Positions 17,299-45,820 of a stretch of DNA of 46,907 bases are shown one piece after another. The stretch lies in IMG/VR virus record IMGVR_UViG_2651869724_000014; one strand, given 5' to 3'. Origin of the DNA: a virus. Its lineage: Duplodnaviria > Heunggongvirae > Uroviricota > Caudoviricetes. Made by a program: the position numbers and the translations under genes. The number at the start of each line of letters is the position of its first letter. The first letter of the stretch is position 1. Below the pieces are notes generated by a model. The model saw nothing but the letters and a program-made list of their open reading frames with translations. It made no database searches and was not told the DNA's origin.

Positions 17299-17374
17299 TC
17301 CTCTGTAGTTCAGTCGGTAGAACGGCGGACTGTTAATCCGTATGTCACTGGTTCGAGTCCAGTCAGAGGAGCCA
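17299..17374 (+). tRNA. asnT: tRNA-Asn (anticodon GTT)
   Basis: TCCTCTGTAGTTCAGTCGGTAGAACGGCGGACTGTTAATCCG...GGTTCGAGTCCAGTCAGAGGAGCCA, 76 nt. Confidence 0.85.
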
Positions 17375-17375
17375 A
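17352..17375. repeat. Island attL: direct repeat formed by tRNA-Asn 3' end
   Basis: gttcgagtccagtcagaggagccaa recurs at 45796-45820. Confidence 0.6.
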
Positions 17376-17553
17376 TTTAAAGAAAGCAGACGTTCACTGA
17401 CGTCTGTTTTCTGCATTTATATCAACTGGTTATCCCCTTCTTCAGGTTCACCCTCGTTCGTTAAAAACCGCTCGAATCCACACTACTTTGCTGGTAAAAA
17501 TGCTGGTAAAGCTGGTTCGATTTGCGTTTTACCAGCACGCGGAGGGAACCGTC

Positions 17554-18822
17554 ATGTCACTTACTGATACTAAAGTAAAAAATGCCAGACCAGCGGAAAA
17601 AGCCGTCAAGCTCACTGATGGATTTGGTCTCTACCTTCTTTTGCATCCCAATGGTTCAAAATACTGGCAGTTAGGCTATCGCTTCGATGGTAAACAGAAA
17701 GTGTTTTCCATTGGTGTTTACCCTGCGGTTTCTCTTGCTGATGCCAGACAACGACGTGATGAAGCAAAAAAGCTGCTTGCTCAGGGAATCGATCCTAACG
17801 CTAAAAAACAGGCTGATGAAAAAACTCTGCAGGAAAAGCGGGATAAAACCCGTTCGTTCCGTGTCGTCGCCAGAAGCTGGTTTGCCACCAAAACAAAATG
17901 GTCTGAAGATTACGCCGATACGGTATGGAAGCGCCTTGAGACCTATGTATTCCCGGATATTGGTGACAGCAACGTTTCAGATCTGGATACGGGTGATCTG
18001 CTTGTTCCGGTAAAAAAAGCAGAAACGCTTGGCTATCTTGAAATTGCCATGCGGATCAAGCAATACATCACTGCCATCCTGCGTCACGCCGTCCAGCAAA
18101 AACTTATGCGCCATAATCCTGCTTACGATATGGAAGGTGCTGTGCAGAAACCAGAGACTGAGCACCGTCCCGCACTGGAGCTGGAAGAGATCCCCCTGCT
18201 ACTTGAACGTATTGATGCCTACAAAGGCCGTGGACTTACCACACTGGCGATTAAACTCAATCTGTTGATTTTCATTCGTTCCAGTGAACTCCGCTATGCA
18301 CGATGGTCAGAAATCGACTTCAACAGTAAGTTATGGGTGATACCAGAAAAGCGTGAAGTGATTGAGCGCGTCAAATATTCCACGCGTGGCGCAAAAATGA
18401 AACGCCAGCACTTTGTTCCCCTTTGCAGGCAGGCTCTTAAGATACTGAAAGAGATCCGTCAGCTTACCTATGAAGAAGGTAATGACGCCGGATTAATTTT
18501 TACTGGATGTTATGACTCATTCAAACCCATGAGTGAAAACACCATCAACAAGGCGCTGCGTAAGATGGGCTATGACACCACGCAGGACATCTGCGGTCAT
18601 GGTTTCCGAACACTGGCATGTAGTGCTCTGATTGAATCAGGGCTATGGTCTAAAGATGCGGTAGAACTTCAGATGAGCCACAAGGAAAGCAACAGTGTGC
18701 GTGCTGCCTATACCCATAAGGCCAAACATCTTGAACAGAGAAGATTGATGTTACAGTGGTGGGCAGATTATCTTGATGCAAATCGGGATGGGATGGTCAG
18801 GCCGTTTGAGTTTGCTCAATAA
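17554..18822 (+). CDS. P4-type tyrosine integrase adjacent to tRNA-Asn
   Basis: MSLTDTKVKNARPAEKAVKLTDGFGLYLLLHPNGSKYWQLGYRF is a P4-integrase N-terminus; ATG 17554 with GGAGGG RBS. Confidence 0.85.
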   Translation: MSLTDTKVKNARPAEKAVKLTDGFGLYLLLHPNGSKYWQLGYRFDGKQKVFSIGVYPAVSLADARQRRDEAKKLLAQGIDPNAKKQADEKTLQEKRDKTRSFRVVARSWFATKTKWSEDYADTVWKRLETYVFPDIGDSNVSDLDTGDLLVPVKKAETLGYLEIAMRIKQYITAILRHAVQQKLMRHNPAYDMEGAVQKPETEHRPALELEEIPLLLERIDAYKGRGLTTLAIKLNLLIFIRSSELRYARWSEIDFNSKLWVIPEKREVIERVKYSTRGAKMKRQHFVPLCRQALKILKEIRQLTYEEGNDAGLIFTGCYDSFKPMSENTINKALRKMGYDTTQDICGHGFRTLACSALIESGLWSKDAVELQMSHKESNSVRAAYTHKAKHLEQRRLMLQWWADYLDANRDGMVRPFEFAQ

Positions 18823-18888
18823 AAGTAAACATGGTGGTCAAAGGTTGCTTCAACTTCAATGCGGCTAAAGATATTAGCCGCATTAATA

Positions 18889-19605
18889 CTAAATCGCTAA
18901 CAGTTCTGTTTTCCAGTATTCACTACCACTTTTATCACAGACATGTGAATATAATATCCTATCCATAATCCTAACAATTTCTTTAACATTATTTAGCTTA
19001 TCAATAACAGTATCTTTTGAAAGATTAATTGAAGAATATGAATGGGCTAACTCCGTGCGGCTATCAGAGAAAGACTGGAGCATGAACTCATAATCTTTTT
19101 TACCTTTCGCAGTCATTGCTTTTAATATATCTTTGATACCAAATCTATTAAAAAGAAGTTTGATATTTTTTTTGGAAGGATATTTTTTATCCATTATCAG
19201 CTGTTTTGGGACAATAACAGGCTTTACAGGAGAATTAGGTGACGATAACGCCTGAAGTTTATCCTTACACTTATTTAAGTCACTCATCATTATTGACTCA
19301 GAACCATGAGAAACGTAATTTATAAAATTTTTCTCTTGGTTTTTGAATAAAGAAAACAAGATAATTTCATCAGGTAGATGCGAAAGGCATCCGTTATTTT
19401 GGTTCAGCATGTCAATCCAATCTTCCAAAACATCTTTAATATAATCTTCGAATGCAGCAGAAACTCGAAATATCGCGTTATTATAAACACTATGTATAAT
19501 ATCTGTTCTTAATTCTTTTATTTTTGAAACATAACGAACCTGTTCAAGCAAATTGGAATGAATCTGCTCGAATTGTTTTCTAGATGCGCTTTTAATATAT
19601 GCCAT
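18889..19605 (-). CDS. Hypothetical partner of DUF262 protein (has an Rx4H motif, possible HEPN-like)
   Basis: 238 aa; start overlaps stop of upstream DUF262 gene at 19605; contains SRTELAHSY (R-x4-H); no HNH/DUF1524 motif seen. Confidence 0.35.
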   Translation of the reverse strand: MAYIKSASRKQFEQIHSNLLEQVRYVSKIKELRTDIIHSVYNNAIFRVSAAFEDYIKDVLEDWIDMLNQNNGCLSHLPDEIILFSLFKNQEKNFINYVSHGSESIMMSDLNKCKDKLQALSSPNSPVKPVIVPKQLIMDKKYPSKKNIKLLFNRFGIKDILKAMTAKGKKDYEFMLQSFSDSRTELAHSYSSINLSKDTVIDKLNNVKEIVRIMDRILYSHVCDKSGSEYWKTELLAI

Positions 19606-44114: not shown

Positions 44115-44195
44115 ATTTCTCTCCATTATTGTTTAGGGTAATAAGATGCCCTGTGCGAATAGTTATCTGTTCGACACGAGATCTTGTTTCTTTTT

Positions 44196-44414
44196 TTATG
44201 CAGCGTTCTGGCGTGAGTTTCGAATAGTCGCGTCAATCCATTCATCAATCTCACTTTCAATGAATGCCACCGCTCTTATCCCTGTTTTCACCTGCGATGG
44301 AAACCGTCCGGCTTTAATCAGTTCGTAAATCCACGTTTTTCCAAATCCGGTGCGTTTTATTACTTCTGGTAAACGGATAAACGTTGTCTTTGCTTTTATT
44401 TCTCTTTTAACCAT
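44196..44414 (-). CDS. alpA: AlpA-family transcriptional regulator
   Basis: 72 aa; IRLPEVIKRTGFGKTWIYELIKAGRFP...IDEWI matches the AlpA HTH pattern. Confidence 0.65.
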   Translation of the reverse strand: MVKREIKAKTTFIRLPEVIKRTGFGKTWIYELIKAGRFPSQVKTGIRAVAFIESEIDEWIDATIRNSRQNAA

Positions 44415-44564
44415 ATTTATCTCCTGTGTTATTCGATGGAGATAATTGTAGGGAGATCGCTTGTGAAAAACTAGGTTGGTTCACCAGCCCTGAACCGGAG
44501 GGATGTTCAGGACCAGTGAATTCAGGGGATGTTTATAAGAAATGAATACAGGGGAAGTTCAGTG

Positions 44565-45440
44565 TTAGTGGATGTCCCTTGTTTTCTTTTTTGTTTCTGG
44601 TTTGTCATTCATTGCGATGACATCAAGAATAGGCGAGTTTTTCACCAGATTGTTTTTTATGAAAAAATCATTCAGTGACTTGAAATAATTGTCATTGCTT
44701 AAAAAACCGTGGGCAAGCGGATAATCAGTGTCTTTGATTTGCTCGCTACCTCTGGCATAACGCATATCGGGGTGTAGGATACCAGCCAATACAGGGTATT
44801 TGATTTTCTGGTTGTTGAGCTGTTCCCAAGCGATGAGGTCCATCAGAGGGATAATCTTGTAATCGAGTATCTTCTGGAATGTTTTATGACCAAACCGGAA
44901 ATCTTTTTCCGGTGGTTTAGGCACTTTCAGGTGCTTTTGCCACTGACTGATAAGCACTTTCAGGTGTTCAGCCAGATCGTCACTGCTGGCTTCCTCCAAG
45001 TCAATTTCAATCAGCATCTTGTTCGCAGGATTCAGCCCTCCCTGTTTCAGGTATTCAGATATGTAATCCGAACTCACTGAAACATTTTCTTCTGGAGGCG
45101 TATTCTCCAGCCGATACATTGCCCGTCCATAGTTAAACAGTGAATTCCTTGTCATTGGCCTGACAGCATAGCTATGAGCCAGCATGTGGCTCTCAGAGAT
45201 CCATTTATCCTCCAGCAAGACCCTGCCAGAGTGGATCATCGCATCATGGTGAATAACGGCATTACGATGCTTATCGTCCAGTGTTTCCCATTGCTGTCTG
45301 GCTTTATAGACAAACATGCGCCTTTCCAGTTCTGAATAAATTTGTTCCAGAGTGAGGTCTTTCAACGCATCATAGCGACTAACATCAAACCATTTGCTTA
45401 GTGCTTCCACTATCTCTGCGACATGCATTCTTTTTGTCAT
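44565..45440 (-). CDS. Hypothetical island protein upstream of alpA
   Basis: 291-aa ORF only. Confidence 0.35.
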   Translation of the reverse strand: MTKRMHVAEIVEALSKWFDVSRYDALKDLTLEQIYSELERRMFVYKARQQWETLDDKHRNAVIHHDAMIHSGRVLLEDKWISESHMLAHSYAVRPMTRNSLFNYGRAMYRLENTPPEENVSVSSDYISEYLKQGGLNPANKMLIEIDLEEASSDDLAEHLKVLISQWQKHLKVPKPPEKDFRFGHKTFQKILDYKIIPLMDLIAWEQLNNQKIKYPVLAGILHPDMRYARGSEQIKDTDYPLAHGFLSNDNYFKSLNDFFIKNNLVKNSPILDVIAMNDKPETKKKTRDIH

Positions 45441-45795
45441 TCTTTTCCCTAAAAATGTTGATATTCATTACATTGACGTTAACGCATCCGGCAGCATAGA
45501 GAAAGAGAATAATGATAACTGGCGGTCTCAGCATTGGTCATAGAGTGTTCTTCTGTCTTTCGTTATCTTTCCGGAGGTAAACATATCGGGTAATAGCGTT
45601 AATCTGTTGAATCAGCGATTGAAGATTTGTAGCAGAACAGGGAGATCGTTCAGTGAGATTTAGTGAAGCGTGTTGTCATAACTAATTGATAGTAATTGAC
45701 TTTATGGTGATATAGCATTAAAAATGCTGGTAAATATGATGGTAAAAACAGACGCCATTTTTTGAAAGCCCCTAACAGCAGGAGATACAGATGAA

Positions 45796-45820
45796 GTTCG
45801 AGTCCAGTCAGAGGAGCCAA
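45796..45820. repeat. Island attR: direct repeat of tRNA-Asn 3' end
   Basis: gttcgagtccagtcagaggagccaa identical to 17351-17375. Confidence 0.6.

Follow-up and report, generated by a model that had tools for sequence, protein, structure and literature searches.

Genomic islands of the EARL (Enterobacteriaceae-associated ROD21-like) family share a characteristic set of features. Their ends are direct repeats of 24-37 bp with more than 85% similarity; a P4-like integrase lies close to one att site and a putative directionality factor close to the other, the latter with a companion gene of ~843 bp without assigned function. The islands also contain a type IV pilin gene, a further gene related to pili, MobA/MobL and TraD, and they have no type IV secretion system (Pina-Iturbe et al. 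2018, PMC6035254). Often there is also a full-length H-NS of 132-134 aa together with a truncated H-NS of 78-90 aa on the opposite strand (PMC6035254). ROD21, an island of this family, has been reported to excise and to be transferred conjugally with helper functions, and IE3, the island of enteropathogenic Escherichia coli O127:H6 E2348/69 (25,819 bp; an EARL member in Table 1 of that study), was found to excise by nested polymerase chain reaction, with attB and attP amplicons that were sequenced as predicted (PMC6035254). Here, we describe an island in the tRNA-Asn gene asnT, contained in a stretch of 46,907 nucleotides (IMG/VR virus record IMGVR_UViG_2651869724_000014) that is referred to as the window. 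We conclude with high confidence that this region is an integrative mobilizable EARL element, essentially a wild-type IE3, situated here in asnT.

The window was searched for tRNA genes with ARAGORN, for RNA families with Rfam, and for protein domains with Pfam, and the open reading frames (ORFs) of the island were searched for defence genes with PADLOC. The integration target is asnT, a tRNA-Asn(GTT) gene on the plus strand at 17299-17374 (ARAGORN; Rfam tRNA, 72.6 bits), with mtfA upstream. The 3' end of asnT is a 25-bp direct repeat at 17351-17375 on the plus strand, the attL core. The second repeat, the attR core, is situated at 45796-45820 on the same strand, followed by the native downstream flank of asnT and a yeeJ-type invasin gene, and no tRNA was found at this distal copy by ARAGORN or Rfam. 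The 25-mer, GTTCGAGTCCAGTCAGAGGAGCCAA, is present in exactly two copies in the window, both on the plus strand, and it stretches to 28 nucleotides with one mismatch (96%). In 100 dinucleotide-preserving shuffles it had no match, even when up to three mismatches were accepted. No further copy of the last 12-17 nucleotides of the core, with two mismatches allowed, is present within the island. The distance from repeat start to repeat start is 28,445 bp, or 28,470 bp counting both repeats, and the G+C content is 0.29-0.44 in the island compared with about 0.45-0.55 in the flanks.

An empty asnT site was constructed in silico from a 500-bp piece of the left flank that includes one repeat at its end and 500 bp of the right flank, and compared with 5,426 complete E. 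coli genomes. A match was counted when it lay in one place with a coverage of at least 80%. The empty site is present contiguously in 2,664 of these genomes. The best matches, which include E2348/69, consist of a single unbroken 1,000 bp (99.2% identity and 100% coverage in E2348/69) and are annotated as mtfA, tRNA-Asn, and an invasin pseudogene. This indicates that what lies between the repeats was inserted as a discrete piece into an empty site that is common in E. coli, and the existence of that site, together with the lack of any match in the 100 shuffles, rules out a chance repeat. An earlier note on this DNA had placed a ~28.4-kb island between copies of a 24-25 bp repeat at the tRNA-Asn 3' end, and the exact 25-bp pair and the empty site bear this out, with the left start at 17351 rather than 17352. 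The note had also considered that the repeat might recur by chance, or that related genomes might have the same genes without repeats. The copies elsewhere in E. coli genomes are the 3' ends of the four Asn-tRNA genes, and related genomes bear the island with repeats, not without them.

An island 99.8% identical to that of the window was seen only in the E2348/69 lineage, where it is IE3 and occupies asnW, between yeeO and yeeN. In E2348/69, asnT is empty, and the island at asnW is bounded by the identical 25-mer. When the right junctions of the window and E2348/69 are compared, the sequences are identical through the repeat and three bases common to both native flanks, and they are unrelated beyond. 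At the left junction, the sequences are unrelated until a few bases before the tRNA and identical from there into the island. That a near-identical element occupies two different tRNA genes of the same sequence provides direct evidence, by comparison, for site-specific mobility.

IE3 and the island of the window are collinear and 99.8-99.9% identical over 25.9 kb, with the same 25-bp repeats. The differences are 26 substitutions, a 22-bp iteron unit that is missing from IE3, a single-base indel, and a segment of 2,626 bp that is present in the window only. This segment (39310-41935, plus strand), delimited by blastn against IE3, contains the end of a 263-aa ORF, DUF4756, H-NS, and a 212-aa ORF (Pfam). 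The HEPN, DUF262, Int2, TraD, RepL, H-NST, and DUF6387 proteins are identical in the two islands, and Int1 differs by T91A only. The mobQ gene of IE3 contains a stop codon, Y25*, whereas that of the window has no premature stop, and alpA starts with ACG in IE3 but with ATG in the window. The loss of the alpA start codon in IE3 has been reported (PMC8844411), and IE3 excises nonetheless. By this comparison, the window copy has suffered less damage than IE3, for which excision has been demonstrated. The earlier note had suggested that the island may still be excisable. The excision of the 99.8%-identical IE3 (PMC6035254) supports this, as do the single difference in Int1, an attR arm identical to that of IE3, and the intact alpA start. 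The empty asnT site and the copy at asnW lend it indirect support. Where IE3 has lost hns (positions 34009-34013 of the E2348/69 locus L001, against window 39310-41935), the aligned blocks overlap by 5 bp. The alignment suggests that the loss was a microhomology-mediated deletion in the E2348/69 lineage.

The features of the island agree with those published for the EARL family. It begins at the 3' end of asnT, and its repeats are 100% identical over 25 bp and 96% over 28 bp. A P4-like integrase lies by one att site, with a conserved attL/integrase-promoter region that is recognized through relatives in other genera, not through ROD21 SEN1970, and the SEN1998 homologue alpA and an 876-bp DUF6387 gene lie by the other. 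PilS and PilV are present, as are MobA/MobL and TraD, with no secretion-system family among the Pfam matches. A 134-aa H-NS on the plus strand and an 80-aa H-NST on the minus strand have opposite orientations, and the identity to the listed member IE3 is 99.8%. The family, the island type, the target, the repeats, and the excision have all been published already.

The int1 gene (17554-18822, plus strand) codes for a P4-type tyrosine integrase of 422 aa with Pfam matches to Arm-DNA-bind_3, Phage_int_M, and Phage_integrase, and it starts 178 bp past the attL core. Directly inside the island, at 17387-17406 on the plus strand, there is a hairpin (CAGACGT-N6-ACGTCTG) followed by a T-run. It is conserved across 13 genera and is probably a replacement terminator for asnT. 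Integrases that are 78-84% identical to Int1 at the amino acid level were listed in at least 12 other genera, including Cedecea (C. neteri), Yersinia (Y. rohdei), Pluralibacter, Serratia, Pantoea, Raoultella, Erwinia, Brenneria, Buttiauxella, and Photorhabdus. In these relatives the Asn core is constantly 176-179 bp upstream of the integrase ATG. Across the 13 genera, the attL arm from the core to the ATG of the integrase gene, about 205 bp long, shows 90% conservation, compared with only 78-84% identity to Int1 for the integrase proteins; this implies that the arm is strongly constrained along its full length.

Between the core and the ATG of int1, at 17489-17537, there are three TGCTGGTAAA motifs, two direct and one inverted, starting at 17489, 17501, and 17528. 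They are at about -65, -53, and -26 from the integrase ATG, and these positions are kept in the relatives of other genera. The attR arm has a pair, TGCTGGTAAA and its one-mismatch neighbour TGATGGTAAA, 12 bp apart at 45725-45746 on the plus strand, 50-70 bp before the attR core. The window of 46.9 kb has four exact copies of TGCTGGTAAA, and all are within 165 bp of an island end. These motifs, of the type TGnTGGTAAA, are candidate arm-type sites for Int1, the directionality factor, or both. SEN1998 has been reported to bind both att regions close to the repeats (PMC8844411).

At the right end, alpA (44196-44414, minus strand) codes for a recombination directionality factor of the AlpA/TorI type and is a homologue of SEN1998 (Pfam Phage_AlpA, 1e-17), with its ATG intact. 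The protein matches the solved structures of AlpA (Protein Data Bank code 8c3t) and TorI (1z4h) by sequence. The DUF6387 gene (44565-45440, minus strand; 291 aa, 876 bp; Pfam, 9.6e-77) is the conserved companion of the directionality factor in EARL islands. A scan of the right end for promoters and terminators gave sites no more numerous than in shuffles. The ORF coordinates and strands and the Pfam matches agree with the arrangement described in the earlier note, in which the integrase lies at one end and alpA with a 291-aa gene at the other, both transcribed inward.

Next to int1, the left end of the island contains a defence-type cassette and a second integrase gene. The cassette consists of a HEPN (RiboL-PSP) gene (18889-19605, minus strand; Pfam) and a DUF262/GmrSD_N gene (19605-20720, minus strand; Pfam; PADLOC NsnA, 5.6e-83, and PD-T4-2_A, 9.2e-44). 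The second integrase gene, int2 (20922-22199, plus strand), is by homology an intact orphan integrase of the serU-island type. Its product of 425 aa is 97% identical to the serU-island integrase of Nissle 1917 and 26% identical to that of int1. The native upstream region of int2 is replaced from 20971, and the serU core, TGGCGGAGAGAGGG, was not found anywhere in the island or the window. RefSeq calls the identical int2 ORF in E2348/69 two pseudogenes, which is apparently an annotation artefact.

Int2 is followed by a 299-bp remnant on the plus strand (22205-22503), a repeat of 18530-18828, which contains the 3' end of another asn-type integrase gene (90 codons) with a TAG stop. The two 299-bp copies are 91% identical and in direct orientation, and they bracket the HEPN/DUF262 cassette and int2 (block 18829-22204). 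When this block is deleted in silico, the product is an integrase gene with a downstream ORF that is found uninterrupted in at least 122 genomes. Compared with uninterrupted integrase genes, the 299-bp copies are 88% against 89% identical for YD786 and 95.5% against 94% for 1504D004. The int1 allele, including its 3' end, is an ordinary gene in strain 1504D004 (98.6% nucleotide identity), and in YA-1 the int1-HEPN-DUF262-int2 block recurs with other cargo attached. An in-register join of homologous integrase genes always looks intact, so the deletion test cannot separate an insertion from a tandem followed by deletion. The most plausible reading of the left 5 kb is a mosaic, made by recombination, that is part of one excising unit, and because there is no internal core, the whole 28.4 kb should excise as one.

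The mobilisation module (27883-30304) consists of a small TraD-like gene (27883-28197, minus strand; 104 aa; Pfam TraD, 1e-10), a 637-bp spacer, and an intact MobQ relaxase gene (28835-30304, plus strand; Pfam MobA_MobL, 5.4e-55). The spacer has several inverted repeats and is a candidate oriT. To the left of the module, at 25412-27485 on the minus strand, are pilV, which codes for a shufflon-type tip adhesin (Pfam Shufflon_N, 2.2e-12), and a gene for a PilS-type type IV pilin (PilS, 1.7e-28). Among the Pfam matches of the scanned island ORFs there is no type IV secretion family. A self-transmissible integrative and conjugative element has its own mating-pair formation and coupling protein, whereas the island has only a relaxase, the 104-aa TraD-like protein, and two pilin genes.

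A repeat-rich non-coding region of about 1.1-1.3 kb and a RepL-like gene occupy 37040-39003 on the plus strand, with the gene at 38206-39003. The non-coding part (37040-38147) contains a 160-nucleotide repeat in two copies (84%) and a 40-nucleotide repeat with a palindrome in three copies. A 23-bp iteron is present in 3.8 copies at 38059-38144, directly upstream of the RepL-like gene. An Rfam scan gave no match in the repeat-rich 36.9-38.2 kb, the tRNA being the sole match in the island. Of the two H-NS-type genes, the full-length homologue (40545-40949, plus strand; 134 aa; Pfam) is contained in the segment absent from IE3. The other (43167-43409, minus strand) codes for the 80-aa truncated H-NS antagonist H-NST; it matches Pfam Histone_HNS_N only, and the published H-NST primer matches it. 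H-NST is known as an H-NS antagonist from the asnW island of enteropathogenic E. coli.

The remaining cargo is distributed over the length of the island. An MvdD-like ATP-grasp gene (Pfam ATPgraspMvdD) lies with two ORFs (284 aa, and an acidic one of 114 aa) at 23177-25297 on the plus strand, with a G+C content of about 0.29. This three-gene block is conserved in YD786 and may be a peptide-modification or defence cassette. A Septu-like pair of an AAA ATPase and an HNH nuclease is present at 30413-32878 on the plus strand (Pfam; PADLOC candidate PDC-M62A, 5e-23, and PDC-M62B, 1.5e-41, with PtuA/PtuB matches). Lipoprotein and DUF4755 genes lie between this pair and the gene for a DUF4238 protein (34908-35963, minus strand; Pfam), and a PIN_12 domain protein is encoded at 41934-42644 on the plus strand (Pfam). 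PADLOC gave no match for the HEPN protein, the ATP-grasp trio, DUF4238, PIN_12, or the 212-aa ORF.

Islands with an int1-type integrase were found mostly at asnT. Among the best 60 records in which such an integrase adjoins a tRNA-Asn gene, 55 have it at asnT and 5 at asnW; in YA-1 the island is at asnU. In YD786 (locus L004, 8100-37972), an EARL island and the yersiniabactin high-pathogenicity island (HPI) are arranged in tandem at asnT, with the same 25-bp core between them. The EARL island of YD786 is decayed, with IS3 and ISVsa5 insertions, a frameshifted mobQ, and a split DUF6387 gene. In 1504D004 (locus L005), a serU island occupies 7990-32617, and asnT holds an int1-type integrase followed by P2-like phage genes.

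In the mechanism that we propose for the island, Int1 would recombine the 25-bp core common to attP and the 3' end of any identical Asn-tRNA gene. Integration would keep the tRNA intact and duplicate the core as attL and attR. On excision, Int1, probably also bound to the TGnTGGTAAA arm sites and aided by the AlpA/TorI-type factor, would rejoin the cores to give an empty asnT and a 28.4-kb circle with all the cargo. The circle would have no type IV secretion of its own, and MobQ and the TraD-like protein would nick oriT and rely for transfer on the conjugation apparatus of a plasmid in the same cell. PilS and PilV may help in mating, and the RepL-like gene with its iterons may allow transient replication of the circle. 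The H-NS and H-NST homologues would modulate silencing.

Several observations count against the reading of the region as an intact, mobile EARL element. The directionality factor is non-essential for the excision of ROD21 or IE3 (PMC8844411), so its role is auxiliary at best. Three single-nucleotide differences from IE3 are in the attL arm (17381, 17407, and 17445), none of them within a motif. The window copy is known from sequence alone, which cannot show excision frequency or transfer, and the oriT, the function of the arm sites, and RepL-driven replication are read from position and repeats only. In addition, the PADLOC matches are to a candidate system (PDC-M62) or to one component of a system (the DUF262 protein), and four putative cargo sets have none. 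The earlier note had suggested that the defence genes might move as a unit. Their movement as one is consistent with the lack of an internal core, from which the 28.4 kb should leave together, but the term defence island is only partly supported for this cargo.

One alternative is a fixed relic, in which the island had entered by site-specific integration, was no longer mobile, and had kept the repeats as a scar. Many relatives are indeed decayed, such as that of YD786, and IE3 itself has the mobQ stop, the lost alpA start, and the 2.6-kb deletion. The window, by contrast, has two identical repeats and no damage in int1, alpA, DUF6387, or mobQ. Excision occurs even in IE3, which is more decayed, and only 26 substitutions in about 25.9 kb, between copies in two Asn-tRNA genes of two strains, imply recent movement. 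We regard a relic as improbable. The P4-family integrase and the AlpA regulator would also suit a P4-like phage satellite, or phage-inducible chromosomal island, that depends on a helper phage for packaging instead of being mobilised by conjugation. In the Pfam survey, in which several ORFs had no match and which did not extend to cos, neither a P4-type primase nor any capsid, terminase, or further structural protein of phages came up, and there were no domains of P4 replication, capsid-size, or late-control genes. The matches were to the MobQ relaxase and TraD, to a type IV pilin and PilV, and to RepL. The genome of P4 is about 11.6 kb, and 28.4 kb far exceeds this size. With the transfer of ROD21 reported as conjugal, we give a satellite hardly any weight.

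The bracketed block at the left end raises the question of a smaller mobile unit, either a 3.7-kb mini-element of DUF262/HEPN and int2 in the 3' end of int1 or two islands in tandem, each with its own att sites. The 299-bp repeat of 91% that flanks 18829-22204 and the deletion product seen uninterrupted in at least 122 genomes are compatible with such an arrangement, and tandem arrays do occur at asnT, as for the EARL island and HPI of YD786. The deletion test, though, cannot tell an insertion from a tandem plus deletion, the core cognate to the serU-type int2 is absent from the island, and the native upstream region of int2 is replaced. The int1 allele is ordinary in 1504D004, and the island has no Asn core in its interior. 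The int2 mini-element nested in int1 was rejected as the leading reading, as int2 is of the serU type and cut off from its att site and promoter, the int1 allele is ordinary, and the deletion test does not discriminate. We consider two separate elements extremely unlikely. A further idea, doubtful though less so than a relic, is that the island is a dual-integrase, plasmid-like shuttle, in which Int1 would provide excision, RepL and the iterons upkeep, and MobQ mobilisation, while the intact int2, 97% identical to serU-island integrases that look functional, would switch the element or its recombinants between the Asn-tRNA genes and serU, only 1 kb away. Given the common backbone of the serU and asn islands, the integrase-proximal region would in that case be the exchange point for defence cassettes such as DUF262/HEPN.

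The serU gene of the window, a tRNA-Ser(CGA) gene, is at 16218-16307 on the minus strand (ARAGORN), and a lambdoid prophage remnant occupies 650-16209 on its side. The remnant contains a Q antiterminator (1678-2499), a sok RNA (5195-5369), an FRG-domain protein (5995-7329), a cI-like S24 repressor (9917-10555), a DicF RNA (11728-11779), and a RecE-like exonuclease (12424-14865), and DUF968 is also present. The prophage integrase (15127-16209) stops 9 bp short of the serU 3' end, and STnc100 and AgvB small RNAs are located at 654-906. With the prophage remnant and the asnT island, two mobile elements flank mtfA.

As an apparently undamaged IE3, with an intact alpA start, an intact relaxase, and the hns segment, the window copy should be a better substrate than E2348/69 for studies of EARL excision and mobilisation. 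EARL islands have so far been described mainly as virulence islands, and this one carries defence-type cassettes that would travel together, namely DUF262/HEPN, the Septu-like ATPase with HNH, DUF4238, and the PIN protein. What remains of interest is that this copy is intact, that it has defence-type cargo and an orphan second integrase, and that it contains the RepL/iteron module.

Among known systems other than IE3, the Yersinia HPI also has Asn-tRNA targets and a P4-family integrase. Its integrase is only 50% identical to Int1 at the amino acid level, and its cargo consists of the yersiniabactin genes, whereas no ybt or irp genes were found in the ORF and Pfam survey of the window. The serU island of uropathogenic E. 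coli, Nissle 1917, and 1504D004 has the same backbone as the window from pilV through DUF6387 (about 95% identical in nucleotide sequence), with the AAA and HNH pair, DUF4238, RepL, H-NS, H-NST, and alpA, and its integrase is 97% identical to int2 of the window. It differs in its tRNA-Ser (serU) site, in its core, in the location of the integrase at the end away from the tRNA, and in having no int1. On this likeness, a single backbone underlies the asn and the serU islands of E. coli, and their integrase modules can be exchanged. ROD21, the EARL prototype from Salmonella Enteritidis, has by its published description the same Asn-tRNA target and short direct repeats, a P4-like integrase with SEN1998 at the other end, a pilin, MobA/MobL, TraD, and an H-NS homologue, and it is excisable and transferable. 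Its cargo differs and includes a 293-aa TIR-domain protein (Table 1 of PMC6035254).

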